Shown here piece by piece: positions 45,829 through 64,000 of a stretch of DNA of 64,000 bases (the first letter of the stretch is position 1; each line of letters opens with the position of its first letter). The notes under the pieces are model-generated. The model saw only the letters and a list, made by a program, of their open reading frames with translations. It was not told the DNA's origin and searched no databases. A program made the translations under genes and the position numbers. Source of the DNA: Vicinamibacteria bacterium. Its GTDB lineage: Bacteria; Acidobacteriota; Vicinamibacteria; Vicinamibacterales; UBA8438. Location of the stretch: the NCBI GenBank assembly GCA_022820675.1, contig JAJEFC010000346.1:3387-67386 (forward strand), written 5' to 3'.

Positions 45829-45879
45829 CGCGTGGTCGCTCCGGCGCGTTCCCCGAGCCGGAAGGGGCGCCGGGCACCG

Positions 45880-46023: not shown

Positions 46024-49000
46024 TCAGCGTTTGAGTGCCAGATCGGCGCTGACGTCGCGGAGGAGCTTGTCGATCGACTCCAGCGTGTTCGATTGGATGT
46101 CCTTGACGCTGGCGCCCAGGGTCACGTCGAGCCGGAACTCCAGCGGCAGTCCGGCAGCGGCCTTCACGATCTCCGGCAGCGCGTCGACCAGATCCTGCAG
46201 CGCCGCGGGATCGAGCACCGCGGACGACCCGTACCCGGCCGTGGTCTTCGAGACGGCCGGCGAGACGGAGGTCGGATCGAACCCGGTGGGCGGTCTCAGC
46301 GAGACCGTCCCCGCGGCGGCCACTTCGCACGGCCAGGGGCCGCTTTCGGGCGTGGTCTCCAGCCAGCGGGACGCGATGGCGTCTTCGACCGCCCGGCGCA
46401 GCACCGCCCAGGGCAGGGGATTGCCCTCCTGGTTGGCGAGGGCGATAGAGAGCGCCAGCACCGTCGTTTCGTCCGCCTTCCAGGCGTCCGGCACGGCGTT
46501 CTTCAGCAGGCGCTGCACGGGCACGGGCTCCAGCGGCGCTCGCAGCGCCGCCGCGGGGGTCAGCACGCCGGCCGGCAGCGGCTCGCCCTGGAAGCTGGCC
46601 GGTCCGTTCAGCAGCCACAGGCTGCCCTGCTGTACCGCTGCCGCGACCGCCGCTTCGACGGCGTTCGCGGGGCAGGCTGGAATGTCCATCGGTTCCTCGT
46701 AGCCCTCCCGGAGCACCGTGACCGTCCGGCCGCCCGAGAAGTAGTCGACGACGGCGGCGACGGTGATCGAGTCGCCGGCCCAGAGCTCCGGCAGGACGCC
46801 GGGCGCCAGGACGCCGGGGTCGAGGTCGGAGAGGGTCGCCGCCGCAGGCAGGAAGAGCTCGAGGGCCGGCTCCGACCGCGCCGCCTCGTCGATCGGCGTC
46901 CGCCACCAGGTCTTGACCGACCGGTCGGGCCGCGGGAGCGACGCGACGAACAGGCCGTCCCGCACGCCCCGGTCGATGGTGGCCAGGATCTCCTGCGTGC
47001 GGAGCATCTTGGGCAGCCGCGGGTTCTCCGCGAACGCACTCGCGAGGTCCTTGACGCGGCGGGACGGCTCGTCGTCGCGCCACAAGTCGTACGGTCCCCC
47101 CGGCAGCATCGCCTCGGCGTTGATCGGCGCCTCCTGGACGCGTGCCCGCCGGTCGGCCTTGACGGTCTCGAACAACGGATCGGAGCCGACCGTCACCCGG
47201 AACGCCTGGACCTCGTTCTGCGGGTTCACGGTCACGACGATGGTCCACGCCTGCCGAATCGCCTCGGGAATCCGGCGGCGCGCGTCCTCGGTCCACGTCG
47301 CCAGCATCTCCTCGCGCACCGGGTCCTGCGGCTGGCCCCTGAGCTGGTGCTGCACGTCGTCCCACCCGAGGTAGTCGCGGACGCGGGTGCGCGCCACCTC
47401 GAGCCCGTCGGTCGAGGGCGCCACCAGCACCACGGCGTTGCGCCGGATGCGGGGGCGGTCGGGGCCGGTCGTCTCGTCGAGGAAGCGGCGCGCGGCTCGG
47501 CTCGGCCGTCCCGCGTTCGAGACGCACGCCGGCGGCAGGACGGCGAAGTGGAACTCGCCGTCGTCCTCGACGTCCCGGGGCCGCTCCGGCAGCATGTGCA
47601 CCCGCACGCCGGACGCCCGCGCGCCGTGGGTCAGGCTCTTCGTCGCGCGGATCTCGGCCAGCAGCTTCACCTCGACCGCTTCCGCGGTGACGCGGTTCGT
47701 GCAGGCGTCGTGGTGCATCTGATTCAGGTTCGGCCGGTTCCCGAGCCGCCACGCCTTCGGCAGCGGCGGCGGGCCGCCGTCCGTCGCCGGTTCGCTCCCG
47801 AATTCGTTCTCGTCGAGGAACCACGACAGATCCGTCCAGCGGCGCAGCCCCTGCTCCAGCTCGATGCGGTCGGGGCGCGTGGCGCCCACCAGCCCGATGA
47901 GGTCTCTCGTCTGGGCCTTCTGACCGGTCGGCTGCGAGGCGAGGAACACCGTGCAGACGGCCTGTTCGATCTCGCGGCCCCTCAGTCCGCTCTGTTCGTC
48001 CTGAATGGCCCGCGCCTTGGCGAGTTCGCCTTCCAGGATCGCCGCCCAGTCGTTGCCGCGGCTTTCGGTCGCTTCTCGCGTCGCGACGCCGGTCAGCTCG
48101 CGGGCCGCCTCGGCGATGCCGTCGCGGCCGGGCGCCGGCAGGAAGATGTTCGGGCCGACCAGGGGCGACGTGTCCCAGCTCTCGGCGTCGCGCAGCGCGA
48201 TGGCGAACGTCCGCAGGATGCCGCGCGTTCGCTGGAACCGGTCGAGCTGCGTCCAGCGCACGTAGAAGAGGTCGGTCAGGTCGGGGTGGAAGGGATAGCC
48301 GCGGGCGAAGCGATCCTCGGCGCTCTTGCGGTCCTTGCGGACGACGTCGTCCACCGCGGCGAGGTTGCGCACGGCGGTCGTCACGTGCGGCAGGAACGCG
48401 TCCGAATCGGCGATCGACGCGGGGGTGAAGAAACGCCGGCGCAGCACCTCGGCCACATCCTCTTTCTGGACCGGCTGCACGCCCTCCTCCTTCTGCCGGT
48501 TGAAGATCTCCGCGATCTGCGCGCTGATGGCCTTGCCCGTCTCGTCGCTCTTGTCGATGTCCGAGGCGAGCAGCGACGCCACGAGCGCACAGCGGTCGAC
48601 CTTGGTCACCGCCTGGCACAGATACTGGAAGAAGTCGGTCAGCCGCCCGCGCCACGCCTCGTCCACCGCGACCTTGCCGCGCGCGAACATCAGCACCTCG
48701 TCGATGAGCACGAGCGTCGCCAGCCCCTCGGCCTGGGGCCGCGACAGCAGATCGACCAGCAGCGGCTCGGCCGGGGCGGTCTCGCGCTCCTCGTCCCGGC
48801 CCTCGGCGTGCAGCGCCCGGATGCCGGCTGCGCCGGCGATCTGGAAGGCGAGCACGCTCCACGGGTGTTTCAGCCAGCGCAGCTCGCCCGCCGGCCCGCG
48901 CACCTCCATCCCCTTCTCGACGTCCAGCTTGTCGAACGCGAGCGCCGCGACCCGCGCCGGCGGCAACGACGCGCCTACGTCCGACCGGAACTGCTCGACC

Positions 49001-49344
49001 GCGGGCAGGTTCGGCAGCGACGCGGGGTCGTGCGCGAGATGCCGCAGCGCCACCAGCGTGTGCGTCTTGCCGCCGCCGTAGGTCAGCTCGAGCTGCCGCA
49101 CCGCCTTGGTGTTGCGGCCCGCAAGGCGAAGCATGACGTCCCGCGCCAGCTCGCGCAGCGAGAAGGTTGGGTAGGTCAGCGCGAAGAAGCGCGCGGGGTC
49201 TTCGTAGATCGGCCGCGCTCCCCGCTGCATGATGACGTCGTGGAGGTCGGCGGCGAAGTCGGCCAGCGACAGCTCGCCGGTGCGCACGTCCTCGCGCAGC
49301 TTCACAACACGGTGCCAAGGGGTCCAGGGGAGCTTCTGGGACAT
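46024..49344 (-). CDS. DUF499 domain ATPase (COG1483-like), ATPase component of helicase-methylase-ATPase (Hma-like) system
   Basis: ATG at 49344 (MSQKLPWTPWHRVVKLREDVRTGELSLADFAADLHDV). Walker A-like GGGKTH and Walker B-like LVLIDEV are present. The N-terminal text is as I remember for DUF499 proteins. Confidence 0.85.
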   Translation of the reverse strand: MSQKLPWTPWHRVVKLREDVRTGELSLADFAADLHDVIMQRGARPIYEDPARFFALTYPTFSLRELARDVMLRLAGRNTKAVRQLELTYGGGKTHTLVALRHLAHDPASLPNLPAVEQFRSDVGASLPPARVAALAFDKLDVEKGMEVRGPAGELRWLKHPWSVLAFQIAGAAGIRALHAEGRDEERETAPAEPLLVDLLSRPQAEGLATLVLIDEVLMFARGKVAVDEAWRGRLTDFFQYLCQAVTKVDRCALVASLLASDIDKSDETGKAISAQIAEIFNRQKEEGVQPVQKEDVAEVLRRRFFTPASIADSDAFLPHVTTAVRNLAAVDDVVRKDRKSAEDRFARGYPFHPDLTDLFYVRWTQLDRFQRTRGILRTFAIALRDAESWDTSPLVGPNIFLPAPGRDGIAEAARELTGVATREATESRGNDWAAILEGELAKARAIQDEQSGLRGREIEQAVCTVFLASQPTGQKAQTRDLIGLVGATRPDRIELEQGLRRWTDLSWFLDENEFGSEPATDGGPPPLPKAWRLGNRPNLNQMHHDACTNRVTAEAVEVKLLAEIRATKSLTHGARASGVRVHMLPERPRDVEDDGEFHFAVLPPACVSNAGRPSRAARRFLDETTGPDRPRIRRNAVVLVAPSTDGLEVARTRVRDYLGWDDVQHQLRGQPQDPVREEMLATWTEDARRRIPEAIRQAWTIVVTVNPQNEVQAFRVTVGSDPLFETVKADRRARVQEAPINAEAMLPGGPYDLWRDDEPSRRVKDLASAFAENPRLPKMLRTQEILATIDRGVRDGLFVASLPRPDRSVKTWWRTPIDEAARSEPALELFLPAAATLSDLDPGVLAPGVLPELWAGDSITVAAVVDYFSGGRTVTVLREGYEEPMDIPACPANAVEAAVAAAVQQGSLWLLNGPASFQGEPLPAGVLTPAAALRAPLEPVPVQRLLKNAVPDAWKADETTVLALSIALANQEGNPLPWAVLRRAVEDAIASRWLETTPESGPWPCEVAAAGTVSLRPPTGFDPTSVSPAVSKTTAGYGSSAVLDPAALQDLVDALPEIVKAAAGLPLEFRLDVTLGASVKDIQSNTLESIDKLLRDVSADLALKR

Positions 49345-49357
49345 CTGCTGGTCTCGT

Positions 49358-49930
49358 TCAGTTCCGGCCAACTACGGCCTGTAGCCGTCGGGCGAGGTTG
49401 TCGAAGTCCTCGGGACACTTCCGCCGGATCGCGTCGATTCGGCCGGCCGCTTCCTCGCCCAGCGGCTTCCGGCCGCCGCCGGGTGCGCGGTGAACCCCGC
49501 GGTCTTGGGCGACTCTGTCGAAATAGCGTTCCTTCACGTGGACCTCCGCGCGAACGTCCCGCCAACGCCAGTCGTCGGGCAGCTCGAGGCCCGCGAGTAC
49601 CCACGTCTCCAGTTCCTCCCAAGCGTTCTCCGCCAACAAGACGCAGCCGTCGCCGAACTCCTTCTCCAAGGCTTGGAGTCTGTCCCGCCGGTGCTCTTCG
49701 CCGTCACGGTCGACGCAAAGGATGAACATACTCGTCATACCGCCGTGCCGCGTGACAACCTCCGACGTGCGGGATGACTTCAGGGCTTCGCCGACACCCC
49801 CGAGTACCGGGTCTTCGCATACCCGAACGCGGGCCGTCGGCCTGCCGATGGCCCGAAAGAGGGACTTGAACAGCGGTTTCAGGATGTACTTGTCCTTTCG
49901 GGAATCCTCCGGAATGACCAGAACATTCAC
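49358..49930 (-). CDS. small TOPRIM-like / DUF4276-like protein, partner of the upstream ABC-type ATPase
   Basis: The GTG start overlaps the ATPase stop (GTGA at 49927-49930). It has an N-terminal acidic strand (VLVIPEDSRKD) and a later ILCVDRDGEE (DxD-like), the layout of a TOPRIM/OLD-type nuclease domain. The family assignment is not certain. Confidence 0.5.
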   Translation of the reverse strand: MNVLVIPEDSRKDKYILKPLFKSLFRAIGRPTARVRVCEDPVLGGVGEALKSSRTSEVVTRHGGMTSMFILCVDRDGEEHRRDRLQALEKEFGDGCVLLAENAWEELETWVLAGLELPDDWRWRDVRAEVHVKERYFDRVAQDRGVHRAPGGGRKPLGEEAAGRIDAIRRKCPEDFDNLARRLQAVVGRN

Positions 49931-51216
49931 GACTGCTGATCTCCCCGGTCGTCTTCGGTGAAGGCGAGCGCCGTTTCCATCCAGCCCGACTCGTGCAGCC
50001 TCCCCAGTCCCTGGTCCTGCCGCAGCTCTCGAGCCTTGGGAAGATCAACGACCCGGCGGATCACCCCGTTGGCGGTGTCTTCGAGTCGGCAGGTCACGGA
50101 GGTGTGCTCGAACGTGTCGTCCTTCATCACGGTCAGGAGCGTCGGCGAATGCGTCGTTCCGACCACCTGCGTGCGGCCTCTCGTCGGTCCCTCGAACAGA
50201 TCCAGCAACAATCCGAGCCGGACAGGGTGAATGCCGTTGTCGATCTCCTCGAAGAAATACAGTCCGGCCGTGTTCTCAGCGAGCAACGCAGCCAGCATCG
50301 CCAGGAAACGCAACGTACCGTCCGAGACGCTGTACGCGGACAGCTTCCGCTGGTCGGACTCGCGAATCACGAGCTGGACCAGTCCGGTCACCGGGTCGAC
50401 GGGAAACTCGAAGTCGGTGACGTCCATGGGCGTGAGTTCGCGAACCCAGCCGATCAGGCTGTCGGCTCTTTCCTGGTTGGCGCAGATCTGCCGAAGCACG
50501 GTCGGCAGGTTCTCGCCAGTATCGCCCAGCACGGTCTGTCCGGGGAACGCCGGCCGTCGCATGCGGTCGGGTATCAGGTCGAGAAAACGCATGTTCGCGA
50601 AGACTTCGATCACCCTTCTTGCGTAGTCCTTGTGGGCACGCACCACGCGTTTGTGTTCCTCGATCTGCGTCAGAGCCGGCTGGTCCGGCCGCACAGCGAT
50701 CCGATCGCCGTACTTGCGCTGCGTGCCAGTTTTCCGCATTCGGAGCAGCAGGTGCGTGTCGTCATCCTGGTATCCGACAGGATCCGAGTAGGGAGGGTCG
50801 CTCGTGTAGATCGGCTCCGCGCCTGTCCAGGTCGAGAGCTCCTCACGCGTGACTCGGAAATTACCGGAGTCCGCCGCGCTTCGGGATATGTCGATGCGGT
50901 AATGCGCGGGTGTATTGCCGAGCTTCAGTCGAACCTCAAGGGCGAATCGATGTCCAGATTCGGTGTCGGCCAGGCGCCCGATCTCATTGGGGGCGCCGCG
51001 AACCGCCTGCCACTCGGTCTGACCGCCTGGTCCGTACTTGCCGCCGAGAATCTCCGCCAACGTGTAGCCGCGTCCGATGCCGTGCAAGAAGCGGAACGCG
51101 TCCCGGATATTGCTCTTGCCGCTGGCGTTCGTGCCCACGATCACGGTGAACGGCCCGACGCGGAGTGTTTCGTCGGCGAAGTTCTTGAAGTCGACGAGTC
51201 GAAGCGAGGTGATCAT
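49927..51216 (-). CDS. ABC/SMC-like AAA ATPase (AAA_15/AAA_21-type)
   Basis: In-frame ATG at 51216. MITSLRLVDFKNFADETLRVGPFTVIVGTNASGKSNIRDAF (Walker A), SDGTLRFLAMLAALL (signature-like) and LYFFEEIDNGIHP (Walker B) are present. Confidence 0.8.
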   Translation of the reverse strand: MITSLRLVDFKNFADETLRVGPFTVIVGTNASGKSNIRDAFRFLHGIGRGYTLAEILGGKYGPGGQTEWQAVRGAPNEIGRLADTESGHRFALEVRLKLGNTPAHYRIDISRSAADSGNFRVTREELSTWTGAEPIYTSDPPYSDPVGYQDDDTHLLLRMRKTGTQRKYGDRIAVRPDQPALTQIEEHKRVVRAHKDYARRVIEVFANMRFLDLIPDRMRRPAFPGQTVLGDTGENLPTVLRQICANQERADSLIGWVRELTPMDVTDFEFPVDPVTGLVQLVIRESDQRKLSAYSVSDGTLRFLAMLAALLAENTAGLYFFEEIDNGIHPVRLGLLLDLFEGPTRGRTQVVGTTHSPTLLTVMKDDTFEHTSVTCRLEDTANGVIRRVVDLPKARELRQDQGLGRLHESGWMETALAFTEDDRGDQQS

Positions 51217-51359
51217 GGCTTCGTTTCCCACCCTGACGGTCGTTCGGCGGGAATCGCCCCTCCAGGAACGTGTCCGAGGATGGCCGGGCGGTTCGCCGCG
51301 GGTGGGCCGCACAAGGCACCAACGAGCGCCGTGGAATCGGACAGCCGGTGGGTCATCGG

Positions 51360-51596
51360 TCAGTCGGCGCGGCGGTCGGGGTGACGTTGGCGCCGCACCC
51401 ACGCCGCGGGGTCGTCGTCCCACGCGTGGCCAGTATCAGGCAGGCGGCCGAGGGCGTCGTCGATGTCGTCCCAGCGCCGTTCGTGCTCGAGACCGCGGCG
51501 GATCAGCTCGGCGATGAACGCGCTTCGCCGCCGCGGCCCGGCGCGGCGGTCGATCTCGTGCACGAGTGCGTCGTCCAGTGCGATGTGCAGACGCAT
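51360..51596 (-). CDS. ribbon-helix-helix (CopG/VapB-like) protein
   Basis: ATG at 51596. MRLHIALDDALVHEIDRRAGPRRRSAFIAELIRRGL plus a Trp-containing tail (AWVRRQR) is the pattern of actinobacterial-type VapB/CopG antitoxins. No PIN partner is present. Confidence 0.6.
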   Translation of the reverse strand: MRLHIALDDALVHEIDRRAGPRRRSAFIAELIRRGLEHERRWDDIDDALGRLPDTGHAWDDDPAAWVRRQRHPDRRAD

Positions 51597-51643
51597 GGGC
51601 CTGAAACTAGCATGGCCGGCGCGCGGGAGTCCATGCGTTCGAG

Positions 51644-54600
51644 TCACGGTTCCTCTTCGAGCCGTTGCAGCTTCGGCTGGCGCGGGGGCGCCAGACCGAC
51701 GCGGGCGGCGACGTGGTTCGAGAGCGACTCCAGGACGGCGCGTTCGTCGGAACCGGCGTCGGCCAGCTCGATTAGCGCCTGCAAGAGACGGGCGAAGAGG
51801 GCGTGGCGCTTCAGGCCGCGGTCGTCGAGATAGTCGTTGACCCGCGCTTCTTCGCCGGCGCGCCACAGGTGCATCAGGCGGTGGGCCTGGTCGATCAGCG
51901 GCGGCGGGCGGCCGTCGGGTGCGGCGTGGCCGAGCGACCTGGCCGTCCTGCGGCTCCACGGCTTCAGCGCCACGCGGCTGCCGGCGCCGCCGGGGCCGTC
52001 GGTCGAGCCGGCGCTGTCGGTCGAGCCGGTGCTGTCGGTCGAGGCGGAGCCGTCCGGCGGGCCGGCGTCCTCGTCGAAGTCGGCGTCGTCGTGGCCGGCT
52101 TCGCCAGCGGACGGGCGCCTGCCGCGAGACAGGACGTCGTAGCGATCCGTCAGCTCGCGGTCGGACAGGTTGCAGGAGAGGGCGTAGAGAATGCAGGCGC
52201 CGGCGGGGGCGTCGCCCATGCCGAAGTCGTTGCGGTGCAGCAGGTAGTAGGTGGTTACGTCGTCGAGCCCGCTGGTCGCCTGGGTGTCGCCGTCGTGGGT
52301 CAGCACCCGGCCGACCACGAAGTCGACCACGAAGCGCCGCACCTCGCGGAGGAACTCCGACACCGCGAGTCGCTCGCCGGGGGCGTCCGCCTTCTTCACG
52401 ACGGGGTGCTTCGAGAACGCCTCGAGGGCGGGCCCGGTCGCCGCCCACACGAAGTCGGGGCCGCGGATGCCGGCGACCCAGAAGTCGCGGAGCTGCCGGG
52501 TGATGTTCTCGCGCATCTCGGCGAGCACCGCGGCGTCCCATCCCGCCCGCGCGGCCGGGCGCTTCCGGCAGACGATCCAGATCGACGAGGCGAGGGCCGC
52601 CGACTGCATGGCGCGGGTCCTGGCGAGCCGTTCCGTCTGGATCGTCCACGAGCCCACGACCACGAACCCGGCCCGGATGAGAGCGGAGACGAGCGTCTCC
52701 CACGCGTCCGGCGACTTGTTGGCGAAGACGATGACGAGCCGGCCCTCGTCGCGCAGCGCGGCGTGGAACCGCGAGAACGCGCGCGCCATGCCGTCCTCGT
52801 AGTTGCGCTTCGACGCCCCGCGGTCGCCGCCGAATCGGGCGGCGTCGTCGATGAGCTCGCCGTCGTTGGCCGCCGCGTTCCACTTCGGGCCGAGGGGCGC
52901 CTCGAAGGCGGCGTCGATCTCGGGCGACAGCCCCCAGAGCGCGCGCCGCAGCCAGACATGGAAGAAGTCCATCAGGTCGGAGTAGGGAATGGCGTCGTAG
53001 TAGGGCGGGTCGGTACAGATGAGGTCGAAGCCCGGGTCCGCGGCGCCGTGGGCCTGCGGCTCGGTCGCGGACCCCGGCGTGCCGGTGGAGCCAGCGGGGG
53101 ACAATCGCTGTTCAGTGCTGGTGGCCTGCGGCTCGGTCGCCGCTGCCGCACCCGCGGCCGCACGGATCGCCGCCAGCACACCCGCAGAGTCGTCGCGGAA
53201 TGTCCGCCGGCCGGGTTCGGCGGAGGCTTGGGGCTCGGCGGTGGGTCCAGGCGTCTTGTCGGAGGTGATTGCCGGCGGAGGTGCCCCGGGGGTGGCCGTG
53301 GGCTGCGGTTCGGCCGCGGACCGGCGCAGCACGGCGGGTGCAGGCGCAGCGGTCGTGGCGTCGAGCAGGTGTTCGCATACTTCAGCGGTCCATTCGACGG
53401 CCTGGATGAAGCCGCCGCTGGTATCGGCCAAGGGGCAGGACTCCGCGAAGTCCCACACCATCGGCAGTGCGAAGCGAGCGAACGTATGCCCAATCTTGTC
53501 GGCGTCGTATTGCCACGTGGCCAGCGTGCTCCCGCGGTCGGCCACGCGGCTGATCGTGGGCGTCAGCGTCGCGACCAGCGCTTCCCGCCACGCTTCCGGC
53601 CAGCCGGCCATCGTCTCGGGGAGGCGGCGCATCTCCTGGACAAGCGTGCCGAGGGCCAGGAGTTGGCGGTTCGTGAACAGCGTGCGCCACCTGTCGAAGC
53701 CGTAGCCGTCGACCGAGAACGCCCGCGACGCTCCGACTCCGGCCTTCGGCGTCGGCTCGTCCGGCACGCCGAACGGCGACTCCGCGTAGAGCGCCTCGAT
53801 CTCTGCCTCGTCCACCCGCGCTGCTTCCAGCTCCAGGGCCGTTGGCAGCCGATACTCCTTGCCGTGCGGGCCGTCGACCACGACCGCAGTCATGACCTCG
53901 CCCAGCCGCCCGGCGCGGCCGTCGAGGCGGAGGTCCTGCATGGTCATGATGGCCTGGCAGAGGGGGCACCGCACGCCGGACCGGCTCATCGTGCCGGCGC
54001 CGACCCGCCGATCGTGCTCGCGCCGGCGCGCGGGGTTGCCTTCCCCCCGGGGGACGTCACTCTCGACTCCGAAGACAACCCCCGTCTTGTCCGCGTTCGC
54101 CGCCATCGTCAGCCGCACGCGCTTGGCACCCTTCCTGGCGAGCCAGCGGGTCTTGAGTAGCGGGACCGTCGCGCGGCAGCCCTTGCAGCGCGCCGTGCGC
54201 GCCCAGAGATACGCGACGGCCGGCTTCGCCACCCATCGCGGATTCCGCCGGTCCTTCAGGTACACCGCGTCGAACGCCGCGTTCAGCGGACCGACGTCGG
54301 TGTCGCCGTTCGCGTCGGCGGCCAGCAGCGTCAGCGGCCGCGGCTCGAACGGCCGGCCGCCCGGCTTCAACGCCTGGAACGCCGCGTAGGTCGGATACCG
54401 TCGCGCAAGCCGTCGCCGCGCCTCGGCCAGCACCCGGCGTCCCCAAGCGCGGACCTGCCACGCGAGGTCCGCCTCCAGCTCCGGTCCTGTGCCGATCAGA
54501 CGCGGCTCGGTCTCGCGGTCGTCGCCGAGGCAGAGCTCGGCGAGTTCCCGCCTCAACGCCCGGCCCTTCACGCCCCGCGCCTTCAGGAGGGCGGTCATGA

Positions 54601-56223: not shown

Positions 56224-56750
56224 GTTCGCCTGCCTTCCCCGACCAGCATCGGAACCTCTCCTGAATTGTCGTACACCGCCCACACGTCCACGAGGGCGCG
56301 GTAGACCTGCTCGAAGTTGCGCCAGCCGGACAGGAACCGCCGTCGGATCACCGGTTCGGGCACGTCGTGGCCGCCTTCCGCCACCCGTTGGGCCACCCGA
56401 GCGATTGCCGCCTCGGGCGACGGCAGCCGCAGGAAGAACAGCTTGACCCGGTAGCCGTGCTCGCGCCAGCGAGGAATCAGGCGGGTGTAGCCGCGTCCGC
56501 TCAACGTCGTCTCGAAGGCGAAGCTGGCGCCCCCCCGTGCGTGCTCCTGAATCTGCCGGGCCATCAGCCGGCCAGCCTGCACGGCCACCGAACCCGCCCC
56601 GAACGGGCTCAACCCGGCCGCAATGAGGTCACCGTTGACGAAGACGGGGCAGCCGGCTTCGGTCGGCAGGAACTCCCGGGCGAACGTCGTCTTCCCGGCT
56701 CCGTTCGGTCCGGCGACTATGAGAACCCGCTTGCCGGCATTCGCAGTCAT
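56220..56750 (-). CDS. zeta-toxin-like P-loop kinase/ATPase (COG4185-like)
   Basis: In-frame ATG at 56750. Walker A is VAGPNGAGKTTFAREF. FETTLSG, VKLFFLRL and GGHDVPEPVIRRRF ... NF ... VYDNSG follow the COG4185/zeta family pattern. Confidence 0.7.
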   Translation of the reverse strand: MTANAGKRVLIVAGPNGAGKTTFAREFLPTEAGCPVFVNGDLIAAGLSPFGAGSVAVQAGRLMARQIQEHARGGASFAFETTLSGRGYTRLIPRWREHGYRVKLFFLRLPSPEAAIARVAQRVAEGGHDVPEPVIRRRFLSGWRNFEQVYRALVDVWAVYDNSGEVPMLVGEGRRT

Positions 56751-56781
56751 GTCGTTCCGGTACACAAGGCGCTGCCGCGTT

Positions 56782-57639
56782 TCAGAATGGAACTTCGTCA
56801 GCAACAGTGTCAATTGATATTTCGTAGTCAAACATGCCGTTGTCCGTAACAAGCCTGATCATCGATCTGCCGGTTACTTGATAGCTATCTTGAAGCGCGT
56901 CGCCGCGTGACTTGAAGGCCACGATACGTCGAGCCTCGAATCGCAATTGAGCCCAACCCGTACGTTGAAGACGCTTGACCGGACAGGTCAGGAAATAGCG
57001 CCATTTGTATTGGGGCACGTCCGACTCTGTGCTGGGGCTATCCCTTTCGTCTTGACGGATTCTCCATTTGTGTCCAGTATAAAAGTAAACGCTCTCGATT
57101 TCTGCAGATGGCAGGTCGGAGTCGTTGTGGAGATCGATCCTAAAAGTTATTTTTGCGGTGGCAGACCAATCCGTCCTTTCCAAATCACCACGGATCTCCT
57201 GTACTTGCACACGAATCCGGCTGCGGCGAATGTTCTCTATTTCGTTGCGAGCCCATGCAAGATTCTCTATCATTTGCTCGCGGAGGAATTGGATTGAACC
57301 CTCGTAAACAATATGCCGCCTGTCCTTCAAGTCGAATGGGATGTCAGCGACATCTCTGGTGAGCAATAAGCAAAGCTTGTCCTTGGCATGCGCGTACCCC
57401 ACTTCGTAGAAGACATTGGGGTTCCTGCCAGACATGTCGGCGATGACGATGTCCGCGGCTTCGATTTGCCGGTAGATTCGGTCAAGTATACCTCCCGCGA
57501 ATAGTTGCTCGTCGACGCGTTCTGCGCGGATACCGAGATCGTCGGCAGGGTCCTTGATGCCCAGTCGGTAGATGTCGTCGAAATCCGAACTGAAAGGCAT
57601 GAGCACGAACGCGAAGGTCGTTTCTGTTGGGTTATGCAT
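56782..57639 (-). CDS. nucleoside 2-deoxyribosyltransferase-like / TIR-like N-domain protein with uncharacterised beta-rich C-domain
   Basis: FAFVLMPFSSDFDDIYRLGI ... ILDRIYRQIEAADIVIADMSGRNPNVFYEVGYAHAKDKLCLLL ... IPFDL is the pattern of the deoxyribosyltransferase/TIR-like Rossmannoid effectors. I do not recognise the C-terminal ~150 aa. The gene is markedly lower in GC than its neighbours. Confidence 0.6.
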   Translation of the reverse strand: MHNPTETTFAFVLMPFSSDFDDIYRLGIKDPADDLGIRAERVDEQLFAGGILDRIYRQIEAADIVIADMSGRNPNVFYEVGYAHAKDKLCLLLTRDVADIPFDLKDRRHIVYEGSIQFLREQMIENLAWARNEIENIRRSRIRVQVQEIRGDLERTDWSATAKITFRIDLHNDSDLPSAEIESVYFYTGHKWRIRQDERDSPSTESDVPQYKWRYFLTCPVKRLQRTGWAQLRFEARRIVAFKSRGDALQDSYQVTGRSMIRLVTDNGMFDYEISIDTVADEVPF

Positions 57640-57783
57640 CTGTTCCGTCCGGTGGTACAGCCACTACATGCCCGGCGATCACGAAGATTCTCTTGCCGAC
57701 TGCGTTGGTCAGAAACGGTTCCGATCGGCGGCCTCGTGGCTGTTCCAGGTCGGCGGACTGGTAGCCCTTGACGTGCACGCGCT

Positions 57784-59703
57784 TCAGCACGCGACGTCTC
57801 CAGAGTTCACGCCCATCTCCTGCAGAAACCGTGACGGCTGTTTGGCCCAGCCGAAGTACGAGTCGGCATGGGTCAGGGTCAGGCTGGACTGAACGCGAGT
57901 GATTGCCACGAAGCAGTTGCGACGTTCTTCTTCGAGGGCGGCAGGCCCGCCCTGCAGTGCGTGAAACGAAGGCAACTGCTCTTCCGCGAGCCCGATCAGG
58001 TAGACGTGACGGAACTCCTTGCCCTTGGCGAGATGAATCGTCAGACACTGCACGTCGCCGGCGGTCGGAGGCGAGGTCTTCTGGCGGAGGTCGAGTTGCT
58101 GGAGGAACTGGCTCAGCGGCGGGTCAGCGCCCAAGTGCTGTCGGATCTCCGCCGTCAGAGATCTCCAGATCCCACTCTCGTCGGATTCCTCGTCGGAATC
58201 GGTAGCGACCGCTCGCGGTGTGCGATCACGCCAATCGAAGGTGTTCTTGATGAAGTCGCGGTACCTTCCTCGGTCAAGGAGGTCGTTCCGCAGGGTATGC
58301 AGCAAGGGCCGTGCGGCGGGGGTTGCACATGAGGATGCAACGTTCAAGAACCCAGCCAGAAGAGGGTCTCCCAGCAGAACGCTCTCGGCCTCCGCTTGCG
58401 TGGGCTGCACGGGGGCCGCGGTGAGCTCGTAGAAGGCCCCGCACAAGAGAGCGAGTTGCTCGGTGTCGCCGGGGCGACGGATGAGGCGTAGCGACGAGTG
58501 GAGAAAACGCAGGAGCGGCGATTCGAACTCGGCCTTTCGCTTGACCACGTACGACGGCAGTCCGGCTCGCGACAGCGCCGCGGCAACGGCGCGGACGAGC
58601 TTGGTGCTTCTGGCGAGGACCGTGCAATCTCCGGGCTCGATGGAGCTCGTCTTGATGTCTTCGGCGACCCAGGACAATTCGGTTGCGCAGTCGGTGAATC
58701 GGCGAGCTCGGACCACCGACGAGCGTGAGGGGGGGGGCGTGGTGGTGGCGGACACCAGGGGCCTCTTGTCGGCGGCCCGGTCAGCGTTGTGGGCGATGAG
58801 GTTGTTCGCCAAGCGAACGACCTCGGGCGGGCATCGAAAGCTCTCGGGAAGCTGGACGATGGCCATGTCGTAGTCGGTCCGGAGTCGGCGGAGACGCTCG
58901 GGGCTGGCGCCGTTCCACTGGTAGATGGTCTGGTCATCGTCGGCGACCACGAAGAGGTTGCTGTTCCGGTCAGGGTAGAGCGCCCGCAGGAGAAGATCCT
59001 GGACCTTGTTGGTGTCCTGGTACTCGTCCACGCAGGCGAACGGGTACACGATGCGGTAATCGCGGGCGATGCGGGGGCGTTCGCGGAAGAGGCGGAGACA
59101 GCACACGAGGAGCGCGCCGAAGTCGAGATGATTGCCTTCGATCAGACGCTGGATGTACGCCCCGAAGATGGGACGAATCCACTCCTTGCCGGGGGCGGCG
59201 AACGGCAGCGGCGCGTCGTGACCCTCGCGACCGTCGTGGCCGTCCCGAAGCAGGCGGTCGACCATGGGCATCAGACCCTTGCCGGTCGCGCCCGCCGGCG
59301 TGCCGGGGTGACCGGCATCCTGTATCGCGTCGTTCAGGACCAGATGCCGATCCGCGTCCTGGTTGAGGATCGCGAAGTCGGGGCGCAGGCCGAGGTGGCT
59401 GCCGTGCTGGCGCAGCACGTCGGCGGCGAAGCCGTGGAACGTCGTCAGGCGAGCTCGGCGCATGCGGGGGCCGAGCAGTTGGGCGACCCGGCCCCTCATC
59501 TCCTCGGCCGCCTTGGTCGTGAACGTGAGCGCGAGGACTCGGAACCGCTTGTCGGGGGTTTCCTGGATGAGCCGCGCGACGCGCGTCGCGAGCACGCGCG
59601 TCTTGCCTGCCCCCGGCCCGGCGAGCACCAGCATCGGGCCGTCGTTCCAGTCGACGGTCCGCCGCTGGTTGACGTTCAAGGAGTCCAGATCGAGCATGGT
59701 CAC
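57784..59703 (-). CDS. gajB: UvrD/PcrA-type superfamily 1 helicase, Gabija GajB
   Basis: VLAGPGAGKTRVL (Walker A), LTFTTKAAEEM, VDEYQDTN and IHLAKGKEF are present. It lies directly downstream of the OLD-type ATPase-TOPRIM gene with overlapping stop and start (GTGA at 59700-59703). Confidence 0.85.
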   Translation of the reverse strand: MTMLDLDSLNVNQRRTVDWNDGPMLVLAGPGAGKTRVLATRVARLIQETPDKRFRVLALTFTTKAAEEMRGRVAQLLGPRMRRARLTTFHGFAADVLRQHGSHLGLRPDFAILNQDADRHLVLNDAIQDAGHPGTPAGATGKGLMPMVDRLLRDGHDGREGHDAPLPFAAPGKEWIRPIFGAYIQRLIEGNHLDFGALLVCCLRLFRERPRIARDYRIVYPFACVDEYQDTNKVQDLLLRALYPDRNSNLFVVADDDQTIYQWNGASPERLRRLRTDYDMAIVQLPESFRCPPEVVRLANNLIAHNADRAADKRPLVSATTTPPPSRSSVVRARRFTDCATELSWVAEDIKTSSIEPGDCTVLARSTKLVRAVAAALSRAGLPSYVVKRKAEFESPLLRFLHSSLRLIRRPGDTEQLALLCGAFYELTAAPVQPTQAEAESVLLGDPLLAGFLNVASSCATPAARPLLHTLRNDLLDRGRYRDFIKNTFDWRDRTPRAVATDSDEESDESGIWRSLTAEIRQHLGADPPLSQFLQQLDLRQKTSPPTAGDVQCLTIHLAKGKEFRHVYLIGLAEEQLPSFHALQGGPAALEEERRNCFVAITRVQSSLTLTHADSYFGWAKQPSRFLQEMGVNSGDVAC

Positions 59704-61394
59704 GCTCCGGCGAGTGCCGAGGCCTTGTTCAGGATACTCGACAGCGCAGCCGGCACCGGGGTCGCTCCGGTCGTCATCCGGGCGGCGGCTTCGGCGGCGA
59801 TCTCCGGCTTGCTGTAGCTCTTCGGTAGAGCGTTCAGGACTTCGGCCCAGTAGGCCGCGGTGTATCTCGCCGATGTCGGTGGCGGCTTCTGTCGGGACAT
59901 GCGCGACTCGTAGAGATCCCCGAATCCGCCTTCACAGAGCATCTGCTCGACGTTCGCGTAAGGCATGGTCAGTCGATCCGCCGGGGGTGCGCCGGCGAAC
60001 TGGTTCTTCACGCGTTGCTCGTACTTGCGGCGCCCGCTGTCGTTGTCGAGCACGCAGTACCAGACGATGCCGAGGCTGTTGGCGACCTTGGCCAACATGC
60101 CCAGGTCGGTCTGGCTGAACTCGACGCAACGCACGCCCGCGCGCTCGATGTCGAGATCGAGCGCTTCCGCGGCACCGGTCAACAGCGTCGTCTCGGTTTC
60201 ACCCTCGACGAGCAGCCAGCACTTGGCGAACAACAGCTCGCCGCGGGTGCGGCGGACATGCGAGTCGAATTTCCGTGCTTCTTCCGGCGTCAGCGTCCCC
60301 GGTTCTATCCGATGCACGTGAATGCCACCGCCGGCATGCGCGAACCGGCGCATGGCCGACGACGGCACGCTGGCGAGGAGGTCGCCGCTATGGGTCGACA
60401 GCAGCTTCTGGCCCGGCAGATCGCTGACGATGCCCATCAGCGAGCGGATAGCTGACGGGTGCAGGTGCGCTTCCGGCTCTTCGAGCGCCGTGATCGGTGC
60501 CGCATCAGGATCCAGGTCGGAGAGCCTGCTGCGGAGGAAAGCCCCGAACAGCAGAAGCACGGCCAGACTCTGAGTCCCCTCGCCCTGGAACTCGACGGGG
60601 ATTCGGGCACCCGAACGCGATGCGAGGCTCACCTGGGCTCGGGACAGCAACGAGAAGAGCTTGGTTGGCAGCGCGTCGATGGACACGGTCTCGTTGGCGC
60701 CGAACTCGATTACCTTGCGGGCGTCCTCGAGGCGCGTGCGGACGTCGAGTAGTGGTTGATGCGCCGTGATGAGTTGCTCGTTCAACCTCGCGAGCGCCGT
60801 CTTCAAGTCCTCTCTGGCATCCTCGGGAAGTCCACTCTCGGCGAGGAACGTGCGCCAGAAACGGCCCTTGGCCGCGAAGTGCCTGGATGCGTCCCGAAGG
60901 GCTGAGAGGTAGAACGGCGGCGCCAACCTCTGGAGCGTATTGAGTTGACTCGGCGCCTTGCCGGCCGGCAGCGGATTGCCGTCGGCGTCGAGGAAATCCC
61001 AGTCGGTCACGAACTCGCCGGTGTCCTGGTCGAAGGACGAGGCGACGCGGAACGTGATCCGACGCTGGTCGTCGGCGTCGAGGGCGAACAGATCCGCCAC
61101 GGCCTGGACGACCTCGTCGCTCCACGGCTCCGACTCCGCTTCGACGAACGACAGCTCGATTTCAATGGGGGCGGCGTCCACGGGCGTCGAGGCATCGTCG
61201 GGAAGGTGATAGTCGTACTCGTCGAACGGACCCCGGCCACGGCCACGCAGTCGTTCGAGGCAGATGCGGACGGCCTCGAGAAAAGCGGTCTTGCCCGAGT
61301 TGTTCTCCCCGATCAGAACCGTAGTTTCGTCGAGGTCGACGGTGAGGTCCCTGATGCAGCGGAAGTTGCGGATCTTGACGGTGGTCAGCCTCAT
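59700..61394 (-). CDS. gajA: OLD-family ATPase-TOPRIM nuclease, Gabija GajA
   Basis: MRLTTVKIRNFRCIRDLTVDLDETTVLIGENNSGKTAFLEA (ABC ATPase N-terminus), LEEPEAHLHP (Walker B/D-loop) and the C-terminal TOPRIM LLVEGETE ... VLDNDSG are present. The 564-aa size fits GajA. Confidence 0.85.
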   Translation of the reverse strand: MRLTTVKIRNFRCIRDLTVDLDETTVLIGENNSGKTAFLEAVRICLERLRGRGRGPFDEYDYHLPDDASTPVDAAPIEIELSFVEAESEPWSDEVVQAVADLFALDADDQRRITFRVASSFDQDTGEFVTDWDFLDADGNPLPAGKAPSQLNTLQRLAPPFYLSALRDASRHFAAKGRFWRTFLAESGLPEDAREDLKTALARLNEQLITAHQPLLDVRTRLEDARKVIEFGANETVSIDALPTKLFSLLSRAQVSLASRSGARIPVEFQGEGTQSLAVLLLFGAFLRSRLSDLDPDAAPITALEEPEAHLHPSAIRSLMGIVSDLPGQKLLSTHSGDLLASVPSSAMRRFAHAGGGIHVHRIEPGTLTPEEARKFDSHVRRTRGELLFAKCWLLVEGETETTLLTGAAEALDLDIERAGVRCVEFSQTDLGMLAKVANSLGIVWYCVLDNDSGRRKYEQRVKNQFAGAPPADRLTMPYANVEQMLCEGGFGDLYESRMSRQKPPPTSARYTAAYWAEVLNALPKSYSKPEIAAEAAARMTTGATPVPAALSSILNKASALAGA

Positions 61395-61498
61395 CCGGTC
61401 ACTCCGTCGGGCCGCGTCCTTCGCTGCGGCGGCTCGTGTCCTTCGCGATGAGGCGTCGCGCGTTCGGTCTCCATGGTCAAGACGTGGGTTGCGCCCAT
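61391..61498 (-). CDS. possible 35-codon upstream ORF translationally coupled to gajA
   Basis: ATG at 61498, 6 nt after AGGAGG (61505-61510 on the + strand). Its TGA overlaps the gajA ATG (ATGA at 61391-61394). The product MGATHVLTMETERATPHREGHEPPQRRTRPDGVTG has no recognisable family. Confidence 0.25.
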   Translation of the reverse strand: MGATHVLTMETERATPHREGHEPPQRRTRPDGVTG

Positions 61499-61562
61499 GT
61501 TCGACCTCCTCTCGGGTGGGCTCGGGCTCGGCGGCGAACCGGTTCGGCTGCCGCCGGAATCA

Positions 61563-64000
61563 CTATTGTGCACTTCCTGGACTCTCCTCCGCCGCCGCGT
61601 GCACCGACGACGCCGGGATGGAGTGGGCCGACAGCTCCCGGGTCCTCACGAGCAGCTTCCCGAACGGGTCGCGGACCCGCGCGAGCCACGGCCGGGGCGT
61701 GGCGCAGTCGTAGACGGCGTAGAGCCAGTAGCCGTCGCGGAGGTTACACGCCTTGGCCCATTCGTTGTCTGACAGCTCGACGTCGCCGGCGCGGGCCCGG
61801 CCCTTGACCTCGATGGCGCGGCGGCGGCCGGCCGGGGTGACGGACAGCAGGTCGAAGCCCGGCCAGTCTCCCAACCCGGCACGGCGCGCGAGATCGGGAC
61901 GCGACACGTCGTGGACGGTGGCGCCGGACGCCTCTTCGTGCGCCTGCGCGACCCGCATGGCGATTTCCTCGACCCGGGCGTCGTGGCGCCGCCGCTCCTG
62001 CGCGTCGGCCGTCGGGAGGACAAGGGCGTGGGCGACGATCTGCGAGTCTCCTGCGGCGATGAGGCTCGGCTCCATCTGCACCCTGCGCAGGCGATGGTCC
62101 CTGTCGGCGGCGAGACGGCGCTGCTCGTCCTTGACCCTGGCGAGCTCGGCGCTTGCCCGAGCGTCGCCCGCGCGGGCCTTGCGGCCGACGTGCTGGCGCC
62201 TCGCAATCAACTCGGCGGTCCTGTGGTCGCAGCCGCGGGCCGTCCAATCGAGCCGTTCGGGTACCGACTGCTCGATACGTGCGCGGTGCTCGTCGACCAA
62301 GCGGGCGAGGGCATCGTTCTCGATCCAGTCGCGGGCGGCGTCGGTCAGCCGCCGCGCCGTGCGGGCGAGCGGCACGCTGCCCGGCGCGACGTCGGGAGCG
62401 CCGCGCAGCAGGAGCAGGTGTTCCAGCGGACAGGGCTCGACGGCGCCGTCTTCGTCCTGGCGGAGTCCGATCAGTCGGCTCTCGACGATCTCGGAACGAG
62501 GCTCTTCCCGCGCGGGGGCGCGGCCCGCGCCATGGTCGGAGCCGTGGCCGGCGCCGTGAGCCGCCGTGGCCGGCGGCTTGCGGACCACGGTCACCCGGGC
62601 GAGGTGGAAGAGATACGGCGCGGTCGCGTGCGGGTCGACGAAGAAGGCGCCGCGCCGCGCCTCGTCCTCGTGCCTCGACAGCAGTGTGGCGCAGAAGCGG
62701 TCGAACACCGGCTCGCCGGGGTGCAGCCAGATGACGTCGGCTCGGTTCGCGGGGCGGTAGACCGTGAACCGGCCGTGGGCACGGGCCGGATGGAGCTCCA
62801 TGGCGGCGAGCACCGGATCGAGGCCGCGCCGGCGCGCCTGGCCGAGCTCGAAGACACCGTCCGGGTCGCCGTCGACGCGAAGATCGATCAGTGGCGCCGC
62901 ACCGGTCACGAACCGCCGGACGTAGCCGGGCAGCAGTCGGCGGTACCGTTCCCGATCGATGGCGGCCTGCAACGCGGGCAGGCTGCTCCTGACGTCGCCA
63001 CCTCCGAACAACGTCCGTTCCCGTTCGTGGAGCGCGCGCACCTGCTCGGCCGTCAGCAGGCCGCCGATGCCGTCGACGGCGGACCTGGCGCCCTCCTCCG
63101 TCGCCGCCTGCTCCAGGTAGTCCTTGAGCGAGACGTTCTCGAACAGGCGGCCCACGACGTCGAAGACCTTGTCCGACCGGAGCTCCGCGCGGATAGCCTC
63201 CAGCTTGTCGAGCAGCGTCTTCAGCACCCGCCCCTCGCGCGTCTCGCCCGCCACGAGGTTGACGATGACGACGGGGTCGTGCCGCTGCCCGTAGCGGTGG
63301 ATGCGGCCCATGCGCTGTTCGAGCCGCGCCGGGTTCCAGGGCACGTCGTAGTTCACCATCAGCCAGCAGAACTGGAGGTTGATGCCCTCGCCCGCGGCGT
63401 CGGTCGCGACCAGGTAGCTGGCCCCGCCCTCGTCGAGCGGGCGCCGGAACAGGTCGACCTGCGCCTCGCGCTCGCGGTAGTCGAGGCCGCCGTGGATCGA
63501 CGCCACCTGTCCGGTGAAGCCCAGCCCCTCGAGGCGTCGGACCAGGAACTCGGCGGTGTCGCGGTGCTCGGTGAAGACGATGAACTTCTCCCTGGCGAAG
63601 GCGGAGCCGCGCAGCACTTCGCGGAGCTTCTCGAACTTGGAGTCCTCGCCCTCGTCGGCGAGGCGCCCCGCCTGGGCGAGAAGCGCCTCGACCTCGCGAC
63701 GCTCTTCCCGGAGCTGCGCCAGGGCCGGCGCGACGATGCCGCCCAGCGCGCGGTCCTCGAACGCCTCGTGACCCTCGCCTCCACCCGCCTCGTCGGCGTC
63801 CTCGTCCGCCGTCCGTGTCTCGAAGAAGTCCGGAGTCGAGGCCAGACGATGCTGGCCGCGCTCCAGCTCGTCCGCCCGCCCGGCGCGCACCAGGTCGATC
63901 GCCTCGTCGAGCCGACCGAGCCGACGCTCGAACGATCGCATCAGCGCATACGTCGAGCTCGCCTGCCGGCGCTGGAAGACGCTCATCGCGAGCCGTGCGG
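61563..64000 (-). CDS. SNF2-family helicase (C-terminal helicase lobe) with long linker and C-terminal DUF3883-like nuclease-fold domain; 5' end outside window; helicase component of Hma-like system
   Basis: Helicase C-lobe motifs are present: FIVFTEHRDT, ATDAAGEGINLQ and NPARLEQRMGRIHRYGQ. The C-terminal GFDLLSV ... IEVKGRA ... ELSDNEWAKA ... YWLYAVYD is as I remember for DUF3883. The ORF is still open at 64000. Confidence 0.85.
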   Translation of the reverse strand, partial: ARLAMSVFQRRQASSTYALMRSFERRLGRLDEAIDLVRAGRADELERGQHRLASTPDFFETRTADEDADEAGGGEGHEAFEDRALGGIVAPALAQLREERREVEALLAQAGRLADEGEDSKFEKLREVLRGSAFAREKFIVFTEHRDTAEFLVRRLEGLGFTGQVASIHGGLDYREREAQVDLFRRPLDEGGASYLVATDAAGEGINLQFCWLMVNYDVPWNPARLEQRMGRIHRYGQRHDPVVIVNLVAGETREGRVLKTLLDKLEAIRAELRSDKVFDVVGRLFENVSLKDYLEQAATEEGARSAVDGIGGLLTAEQVRALHERERTLFGGGDVRSSLPALQAAIDRERYRRLLPGYVRRFVTGAAPLIDLRVDGDPDGVFELGQARRRGLDPVLAAMELHPARAHGRFTVYRPANRADVIWLHPGEPVFDRFCATLLSRHEDEARRGAFFVDPHATAPYLFHLARVTVVRKPPATAAHGAGHGSDHGAGRAPAREEPRSEIVESRLIGLRQDEDGAVEPCPLEHLLLLRGAPDVAPGSVPLARTARRLTDAARDWIENDALARLVDEHRARIEQSVPERLDWTARGCDHRTAELIARRQHVGRKARAGDARASAELARVKDEQRRLAADRDHRLRRVQMEPSLIAAGDSQIVAHALVLPTADAQERRRHDARVEEIAMRVAQAHEEASGATVHDVSRPDLARRAGLGDWPGFDLLSVTPAGRRRAIEVKGRARAGDVELSDNEWAKACNLRDGYWLYAVYDCATPRPWLARVRDPFGKLLVRTRELSAHSIPASSVHAAAEESPGSAQ

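Follow-up and report, generated by a model that had tools for sequence, protein, structure and literature searches.

A probable Hma locus of a Vicinamibacteria bacterium with putative defence cassettes between its core genes

Introduction

Why are the three core genes of a defence system separated from one another by genes of other defence families, and do the latter belong to the system or are they exchanged independently of it? The question is raised by a locus in the chromosome of an uncultured Vicinamibacteria bacterium from soil or a sponge (Acidobacteriota, order Vicinamibacterales; GenBank assembly GCA_022820675.1, contig JAJEFC010000346.1) that resembles the Hma systems and occupies positions 46024 to 64000 of the 64,000-nucleotide stretch of DNA analysed here (contig positions 3,387 to 67,386; hereafter, the window). 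An operon composed of a DUF499 ATPase, a methyltransferase and an SNF2-DUF3883 helicase was described in 2013 as a restriction-modification (RM)-like system and is named Hma in PADLOC (Payne et al. 2021 and 2024). Genes embedded in such operons were found in 62.7% of 1485 Hma systems, and 'guilt-by-embedding' was used to validate seven systems (Payne et al., bioRxiv 10.1101/2024.01.29.577857). Against T4, an HmaA protein of Halomonas confers protection on E. coli by means of its NOV_C PD-(D/E)xK nickase (PMC11232893), and the triad was reclassified as Type-1 DUF499-centred BREX-related, with embedded OLD-ABC/TOPRIM and other nucleases being read as backup effectors (PMC12839542).

We conclude with considerable confidence that the locus is an Hma system of this Type-1 DUF499-centred, BREX-related and RM-like kind, and that its two intergenic slots are hot spots for defence cassettes. 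It is a heavily loaded example of the published embedding pattern and nothing conceptually new, and illustrates cleanly how defence genes are naturally embedded within a defence system, in a phylum that has been little studied. New are the families of a nucleoside 2-deoxyribosyltransferase (NDT)-like protein, a zeta-toxin-like kinase and a protein of 190 amino acids (aa), which have no PADLOC family match or a partial domain match only and remain defence candidates. A previous reading of the window, made without database searches (hereafter, the sequence-only reading), had stated that Hma loci embed other defence genes, which is indeed published; it had also taken the mechanism of the core to be uncharacterised, a statement partly overtaken by the Halomonas nickase work and the BREX-related RM-like classification.

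Core genes and composition of the locus

From 64000 down to 46024 the locus is a single unbroken run of genes on the minus strand. ORFs (open reading frames) were listed and then filtered on G+C at the third codon position; there are 12, namely 11 intact genes and one remnant, and not the 13–14 genes counted previously. In other respects the ORF listing agrees with the sequence-only reading: all genes are on the minus strand and are separated by tiny gaps or have overlapping stop and start codons (spacing −34 to +144 nt, with 4-nt overlaps at four junctions), and they follow the order helicase (hmaA), Gabija, NDT-like, zeta-like and AbiJ-like genes, methylase (hmaB), ribbon-helix-helix (RHH), ABC ATPase and TOPRIM-like genes, and finally the ATPase (hmaC). 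Five genes and the remnant lie in the slot between hmaA and hmaB (A–B slot) and three genes in that between hmaB and hmaC (B–C slot). The cargo had been described as three blocks; it is indeed placed between the core genes, but consists of at least five independently exchangeable cassettes and one gene remnant.

The proposed core, an SNF2 helicase with a DUF3883-like tail, a DUF1156 DPPY methylase and a DUF499 ATPase, was recovered with the Hma models of PADLOC, with Pfam (DUF1156, Helicase_C and NOV_C) and by motifs. The C-terminal 811 codons of hmaA (61563–63998, minus strand, frame open at the window end) encode an SNF2 helicase that carries a fused PD-(D/E)xK nuclease. The product matches PADLOC HmaA (4.8e-81) at profile positions 372–1130 of 1176, and, as the match begins at position 372, approximately 370 N-terminal codons must lie beyond the window end; Pfam families Helicase_C (6.6e-23) and NOV_C (formerly DUF3883; 7.5e-15) were also detected. 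Helicase motif VI (QRMGRIHR) is encoded at 63294–63317, and the nuclease residues are D in GFDLLS (61842–61859), ExK in IEVKG (61800–61814) and E in DNEW (61758–61769).

The hmaB gene (51644–55198, minus strand) encodes a DUF1156 N6-adenine-type DNA methyltransferase (PADLOC HmaB 1.4e-105; Pfam DUF1156 6.4e-18) with motif I FAGGG at 54758–54772 and motif IV DPPY at 53000–53011. Just upstream of DPPY, at approximately 53073–53294, it has a low-complexity linker rich in Pro, Thr, Ala and Glu that is unalignable in several close relatives, and an 18-nt tandem repeat at 51977–52066 encodes low complexity of the STDSTG type. The hmaC gene (46024–49344, minus strand, alternative start 49371) encodes a DUF499-type AAA+ (STAND/ORC-like) ATPase, which matches PADLOC HmaC (5.4e-71, residues 17–805) and, more weakly, DUF499 (5.7e-17), with Walker A GGGKT at 49063–49077 and Walker B LIDE at 48697–48708. 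The Pfam DUF499 model gave no match with the window HmaC, although the same model does match homologues in related loci. In a motif search the core enzymes proved to have intact catalytic motifs, and P-loops were likewise intact in GajA and GajB, in the ABC ATPase and in the zeta-like kinase.

The same three proteins in the same order and on one strand characterise Hma, and a C-terminal active PD-(D/E)xK (NOV_C) domain on the helicase is typical of Type 1. The predicted active restriction endonuclease fused to the helicase, together with an HmaC without HEPN, fits Type 1; a HEPN domain is fused to HmaC in 1370 of 2446 taxa with Type 1 systems, and an N-terminal HEPN domain is absent from this HmaC. 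The locus is loaded above the usual, its A–B slot exceeding the limit of three genes in the search of Payne et al. (a search setting, not a biological criterion), so that a standard Hma call may miss it. The NCBIfam models DUF499_antiphage (6.3e-24; score 84 against a cut-off of 1200) and DUF1156_antiphage (155 against 1000) were tried as well, but the scores were far below the cut-offs and the locus was not filed there; together with phospholipD_antiphage, these models appear to describe a different variant of the triad with a phospholipase-D-helicase.

Core and cargo differ in base composition. The window has approximately 71% G+C, and 500-nt windows over positions 1–46000, taken as background, gave a mean of 0.717 (standard deviation 0.027, minimum 0.638). 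G+C is 0.719 in HmaC, 0.727 in HmaB and 0.725 in the HmaA part, equal to this background, and in the cargo 0.635 in the ABC ATPase and 190-aa genes, 0.630 in the AbiJ-like, 0.684 in the zeta-like and 0.515 in the NDT-like gene, and 0.657 in Gabija. The NDT-like (approximately 0.51), AbiJ-like and ABC blocks fall below the background minimum, whereas Gabija (0.65–0.69 per 500-nt window) and the zeta-like gene are low, yet inside the background range. The contrast is clearest at third codon positions (0.90–0.93 in the core vs. 0.59–0.83 in the cargo), which points to a different history and not to a different amino-acid composition. The RHH gene, with a host-like G+C of 0.73, is an exception, and the claim of the sequence-only reading that cargo blocks are lower in G+C holds for the other cargo but not for this gene; four of its five hand counts per 60 nt were exact, while positions 55741–55800 contain 32/60 and not 34/60.

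Cassette turnover in related loci

Relatives were collected by a search with HmaB, allowing one genome per species; 544 relatives were confirmed and the best 80 were kept. The sequence-only reading had made its interpretation depend on the three core genes being found together in other genomes, and this is how they occur: essentially all of these loci that extend far enough have HmaA, HmaB and HmaC in this order on one strand, in at least seven phylum-level groups (Acidobacteriota, Binatia, Alphaproteobacteria, Gammaproteobacteria, Chloroflexota, Latescibacterota and Bacillota). Comparison of homologous loci, as that reading had advised, found both slots variable in length (37–9203 bp for A–B; 7–6749 bp for B–C) and in content. 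Slot ORFs of the 80 loci fell into 158 families, 109 of which were seen once, and the cargo of relatives comprised Gabija, TIR-APAZ or SIR2-APAZ with short pAgo, NsnA, OLD-like nucleases and Ppl-like proteins, and furthermore HEC-07, ABC with DUF4276/HEC-01B, Schlafen/AlbA_2, DUF2806 and DUF3800. In hosts of 0.54–0.74 G+C, slots were lower in G+C than the core in 71 of 72 cases for A–B and in 63 of 63 for B–C; a lower cargo G+C is near-universal among the 80 loci, whatever the G+C of the host, and could serve as a simple flag for cassettes.

The closest loci belong to metagenome-assembled genomes of Vicinamibacterales. The nearest one, L001, has core proteins with 92–97% amino-acid identity (93–94% at the nucleotide level) and shares flanking synteny with the window. 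The hmaA-gajA-gajB segment is collinear (93%), but the NDT/zeta/AbiJ block of the window (57761–55160) is swapped for approximately 1 kb encoding a ThsB/TIR-like protein and the RHH segment (51654–51217) is missing, the breakpoints being no more than some tens of nucleotides away from gene ends. Furthermore, nucleotide identity drops from approximately 0.95 in hmaC to approximately 0.72 in the 190-aa and ABC genes, the step being located exactly at the hmaC start. At this position L001 has an ABC/190-aa allele that is 74% identical, as against 96% for HmaA and HmaC, and the ABC allele of the window is nearer to that of another relative, L003 (0.91–0.95). Over 37 loci, the divergence of HmaA and that of HmaC were correlated with a Spearman rho of 0.86, and those of ABC/190-aa and the core with 0.33–0.46. 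These comparisons show the turnover and its breakpoints: close relatives differ by whole cassettes whose boundaries coincide with core gene ends, which supports exchange by recombination in the conserved flanks.

Several loci also bear traces of past rearrangement. The slot position of the intact window Gabija is occupied in L003 (6570–8324) by a decayed Gabija of which GajA residues 1–112 and GajB residues 394–639 are left. In L004 (14663–15009) the hmaB 3' end and the RHH gene are duplicated after the ABC gene, and duplicated fragments lie at the island edges in L001 (965–1043 and 1140–1379) and L010 (18770–18886 and 19698–19766), both of which carry extra copies of the first 70–80 bp of hmaC there. 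The edge duplications in L001, L004 and L010 resemble scars that recombination, or a partial tandem duplication, would leave, and cassette exchange may proceed via recombination at the hmaB 3' and hmaC 5' ends, leaving short duplicated scars. In L001 a 241-bp direct repeat of the 3' end of a PhzF-like gene flanks the whole island. In L002 the PhzF-like gene (192–994, corresponding to 45025–45829 of the window) is located upstream of hmaA and not downstream of hmaC, i.e. the Hma island of L002 is displaced by one gene on the same chromosomal backbone.

Embedded genes

Gabija was placed next to the helicase by the sequence-only reading, and gajA and gajB are indeed adjacent there with full-length, top-scoring matches. 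The gajA gene (59700–61394, minus strand) encodes an OLD-type ABC ATPase with a TOPRIM nuclease domain (PADLOC GajA 1.3e-196 over the full length; Pfam DUF2813, AAA_15 and OLD-like_TOPRIM) and has Walker A GENNSGKT at 61287–61310. It overlaps by 4 nt with gajB (57784–59703, minus strand), which encodes a UvrD-type helicase (PADLOC GajB 6.5e-222; Pfam UvrD-helicase 1e-57 and UvrD_C). The pair matches known Gabija over its full length, and is here embedded in Hma; the succession of Gabija and an NDT-like gene is found here and in loci L081 and L085.

Between hmaA and gajA, a 60-codon ORF (61391–61573, minus strand) is a deletion remnant of a gene for a retropepsin-like aspartyl protease. It consists of the fused ends of one slot family (start NMGATH 61510–61481; tail 61471–61394), the representative of which matches Pfam gag-asp_proteas (1.5e-7); approximately 358 bp are missing at 61481 compared with L003 and L008, and its G+C by codon position (0.62/0.67/0.74) is atypical of a gene. 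An intact protease gene (approximately 123 aa, highly conserved) directly follows hmaA in 17 of the 80 loci, which belong to several phyla (e.g. L008 821–1354; L062 5724–6095), and the family has no match in PADLOC.

The gene with the lowest G+C of the locus (56782–57639, minus strand) encodes a protein of 285 aa with an NDT-like (TIR-like) N-terminal domain. The match to Pfam Nuc_deoxyrib_tr (PF05014; 3.8e-6) reached 27.5 bits against a cut-off of 28.8, and PADLOC gave a partial match to a TIR effector model only (7e-10). The family comprises 4312 homologues of approximately 283 aa that are conserved over the full length. The structure model (pLDDT, the predicted score in the local distance difference test, 89) comprises an NDT-like domain at the N-terminus, followed by a long helix and, at the C-terminus, a beta-sandwich; the first of these resembles the T. 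brucei NDT 2a0k (target template modelling (TM) score 0.51), and the invariant E79 in FYEVGYA (57391–57411) aligns with the catalytic Glu region of NDT/DNPH1, with E-values of only 0.36–0.95. A Foldseek search with the whole model suggested a GH3 glycosidase, which was rejected, as the query TM score was approximately 0.28 and the likeness lay in a generic combination of an alpha/beta domain with a beta-sandwich. Genes of this family are also found in slots of further Hma loci, behind Gabija where there is no Hma, and as single genes surrounded by housekeeping genes. An NDT-like effector is known from retron Ec86/Eco1. As modelled, the protein would share a Rossmann-like NDT fold at its N-terminus, and the Glu in an FxExGYA-type motif, with N-glycosidase effectors of the NDT, DNPH1 and TIR-like kinds; it differs from the retron effector in being solitary, 283–285 aa long and provided with a C-terminal beta-sandwich, with no retron reverse transcriptase or non-coding RNA, and is uncatalogued in PADLOC v2.0.0.

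The following gene (56220–56750, minus strand) encodes a zeta-toxin-like P-loop kinase of 176 aa (Pfam Zeta_toxin 6.2e-12, 45.8 bits against a cut-off of 22.3, and AAA_33) with Walker A GPNGAGKT at 56688–56711; no PADLOC family was matched at E ≤ 0.001. It has at least 8000 homologues, and counts of the loci with the gene in their A–B slot range from 12 to approximately 17 out of 80. It shares the Zeta_toxin kinase domain with zeta/PezT, but the kinase family is short (approximately 174 aa) and there is no epsilon/PezA antitoxin gene; the NDT-like gene upstream ends just 31 nt before it, and no antitoxin-like ORF is present. Elsewhere, zeta-like genes have a variable overlapping downstream gene (AbiJ-like or encoding a 221-aa protein) or a variable upstream gene (encoding an ABC ATPase or a 1504-aa protein).

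The AbiJ-like gene (minus strand, 55165–56283 from a GTG start or 55165–56223 from an ATG start, the latter giving a 4-nt overlap with the zeta-like stop) belongs to PDC-S32, a candidate system in PADLOC (2.8e-46, profile positions 6–281 of 285), and matches Pfam AbiJ_NTD4 (6.8e-9). This virtually full-length match directly follows the zeta-like gene, and the same succession, with overlapping stop and start codons, is also found outside Hma (L101–L106, including an ABC-zeta-AbiJ_NTD4 operon), so that the zeta-like and AbiJ-like genes probably form one unit here and the NDT-like gene a separate one. In L081–L085 and L101–L106 the genes downstream of one for a 440-aa OLD-type ABC ATPase are interchangeable (NDT-like, zeta-like plus AbiJ-like, or AbiJ-like alone), which suggests that these modules form one family, anchored by the ABC ATPase and with effectors that can be exchanged. 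We found no papers on PDC-S32 or PDC-M07.

In the B–C slot, the RHH gene (51360–51596, minus strand) encodes 78 aa with weak matches to Pfam RHH_1 (0.038) and VapB_antitoxin (0.15). It is not found in L001 and L002, is present in L003 (93%) and L010, and is the gene duplicated in L004 along with the hmaB 3' end. The OLD/PARIS-type ABC ATPase of 429 aa (49927–51216, minus strand) likely starts at Met70 of a 498-codon ORF, since the alignments of its relatives begin there. The PADLOC candidate PDC-M07A is its best match (8.9e-62), ahead of HEC-01A (9e-41) and AriA (7.6e-31), and Pfam AAA_21 is matched at 5.8e-30; Walker A (GTNASGKS) is at 51112–51135 and Walker B (FFEEID) at 50239–50256. Its gene overlaps by 4 nt with that of the 190-aa partner (49358–49930, minus strand). 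As an overlapping two-gene cassette in the B–C slot the pair is similar to the HEC cassettes, but the 190-aa partner matches no HEC-01B, PDC-M07B, AriB or DUF4276 model.

The 190-aa protein had been called TOPRIM-like. Its motifs and predicted topology agree with this, but family and fold searches gave no significant match: there was none in Pfam, NCBIfam or PADLOC (E ≤ 0.1), nor with a sequence profile against PDB, and profile-profile comparison (hhalign) with the DUF4276/HEC-01B-like slot families remained below 4% probability, the template alignments being shallow. In its family of 2276 homologues, E8, D9, D13 and D76 are invariant and D74 nearly so, and the model (pLDDT 86.7) has four parallel strands with a Glu after strand 1 and a DxD after strand 3, an arrangement that, as modelled, fits the TOPRIM pattern. 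The gene always adjoins that of an ABC ATPase, also outside Hma, where the pair was found among housekeeping genes (L099) and beside a Type ISP RM enzyme (L100).

Proposed mechanism and points against it

Judging from its family, HmaB would mark host DNA by N6-adenine methylation, and HmaC, an ORC/STAND-like AAA+ ATPase with DNA-binding domains, would assemble or license a scanning complex. HmaA would translocate on DNA with its SNF2 motor and nick or cut unmarked DNA with the C-terminal PD-(D/E)xK domain, as shown for the Halomonas homologue. The embedded, co-oriented cassettes (Gabija; the NDT-like gene; the zeta-like and AbiJ-like genes; the PARIS/HEC-01-like pair) would act as autonomous second-line systems. 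The NDT-like protein, a presumed solitary N-glycosidase with a beta-sandwich domain, is predicted to deplete a nucleotide or NAD+, while the ABC ATPase may be the sensor, and the 190-aa protein the TOPRIM-like nuclease, of their pair. Cassettes would be swapped by recombination at the conserved core gene ends, so that the core would stay at host composition and the cargo lower in G+C. The enzyme activities, the co-transcription and the defence phenotypes of this locus are inferred. The cargo can stand alone: the ABC and 190-aa pair, the NDT-like gene and the ABC-zeta-AbiJ arrangement each also occur without Hma.

Slightly short of an even chance, in our estimate, is a bolder proposal, namely that the NDT-like protein with its beta-sandwich, the short zeta-like kinase, and the ABC ATPase with the 190-aa protein would each be a new anti-phage system by guilt-by-embedding, exchanged via recombination at the hmaB 3' and hmaC 5' ends. 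Among the recurrent embedded families with no PADLOC family match, or a partial domain match only, those worth anti-phage testing are the NDT-like protein, the zeta-like kinase and the 190-aa partner of the ABC ATPase, together with the retropepsin-like protease, DUF2806 and DUF3800.

Several observations weigh against this picture. The Halomonas HmaA alone protects, and overexpression of HmaB left T4 sensitivity unchanged (PMC11232893), so that the methylation-based self/non-self step is hypothetical. HEC-01, among the nearest catalogued relatives of the ABC and 190-aa pair, gave no defence in the assays of Payne et al. (10.1101/2024.01.29.577857). Foldseek searches with the 190-aa model against PDB and viral models returned nothing significant, the best TM match among viral models being an RloB-like protein (0.49/0.45, E 0.19). 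The NDT-like and zeta-like genes of the window lack the gene for the 440-aa ABC ATPase that precedes them elsewhere, and may here be inactive orphans. The helicase N-lobe of hmaA and its promoter fall outside the window, and a scan for sigma-70 promoters and terminators found nothing assignable on the coding strand of the locus: the single promoter-like site was on the opposite strand, and terminator-like sites were fewer than in shuffled sequence.

Alternative explanations

Another possible explanation, although a rather unlikely one, is that the embedded genes are functionally coupled to the core as auxiliary or backup effectors, which would fire when a phage anti-restriction protein disables the core, or would take over DNA nicked by HmaA. 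Such a role was proposed for OLD-ABC/TOPRIM, HEPN, PIN and Schlafen nucleases inside BREX and BREX-related loci (PMC12839542), and would agree with the strict co-orientation and tight spacing of the cargo and with the fact that roughly half of the 80 loci have the ABC and 190-aa pair immediately upstream of hmaC. Coupling of this kind is at odds with the existence of the same cassettes without an Hma core, with their free exchange between close relatives and with the nearly empty slots of some Hma loci (e.g. L013, L014, L063 and L072); autonomous cargo in Hma slots remains the preferred reading.

The recurrence of the pair could also mean that the core of this Hma clade has five components, two of them being the ABC ATPase and the 190-aa protein. 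A full-length ABC homologue lies between hmaB and hmaC in 41 of the 80 loci, with the 190-aa partner in approximately 31–37 of them, and the pair (45–93% identical to that of the window) is always just upstream of hmaC. We nevertheless regard this as improbable: the divergence of the pair is uncoupled from that of the core, not only in L001 but also across loci in which the pair is 50–93% identical where HmaC is 81–96%; its G+C is under that of the core in 41 of 41 loci; many Hma loci are without it; and it occurs on its own, as in L099 and L100.

Equally little credence is given to the possibility that decay has set in and that the locus, in whole or in part of its cargo, has ceased to function. 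The 60-codon ORF is a deletion remnant, the NDT-like and zeta-like genes are without their usual preceding ABC ATPase, and relatives contain decayed Gabija (L003) or duplicated fragments (L001, L004 and L010), but the other 11 ORFs of the locus are full length in comparison with profiles and homologues, their catalytic motifs are intact, and third-position G+C of the core is that of maintained host genes. Finally, a BREX type 3 or DISARM variant in place of Hma is hardly credible: the helicase does match DrmD (1e-45) and BrxHI/II (2.9e-44), and the triad parallels the homologous ATPase BrxC, N6-methyltransferase BrxXI and SNF2 helicase BrxHII, but for each core protein the Hma model is the best by tens of orders of magnitude, the methyltransferase carries a DUF1156 N-domain, the effector nuclease is fused to the helicase, and PglZ, BrxA, BrxB/F, BrxL and DrmA/B/C are absent from the 12 ORFs of the locus (the region upstream of hmaA being outside the window).

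Locus boundary and minor features

The lower boundary at 46024, as set by the sequence-only reading, is a real one, since the next genes downstream of hmaC, encoding a PhzF-like protein (45034–45828) and a GMC oxidoreductase (42985–44712), are on the plus strand, with further housekeeping genes beyond them. An Rfam scan of the whole window at gathering thresholds detected no RNA gene. ARAGORN reported a doubtful 92-nt tRNA-Gly(CCC) at 22740–22831 (minus strand), inside the ORF of a PQQ-repeat protein (22245–24461) and far from the locus, which is probably a false positive.

A search for attC-like or other repeats at cassette boundaries in the window gave chance-level matches only, apart from the 18-nt repeat of hmaB and an array of 12-mers outside the locus. 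The latter, at 45883–45966, consists of four tandem copies of GGCAGGAATGTA(AC) with a spacing of 23–24 nt (chance expectation 0.07 matches), and lies where the PhzF-like gene and hmaC converge, in the 195 nt that separate the former from the hmaC stop. L001 has the same four copies in the same place and L008 has one; the array may serve for protein binding or as a terminator region.

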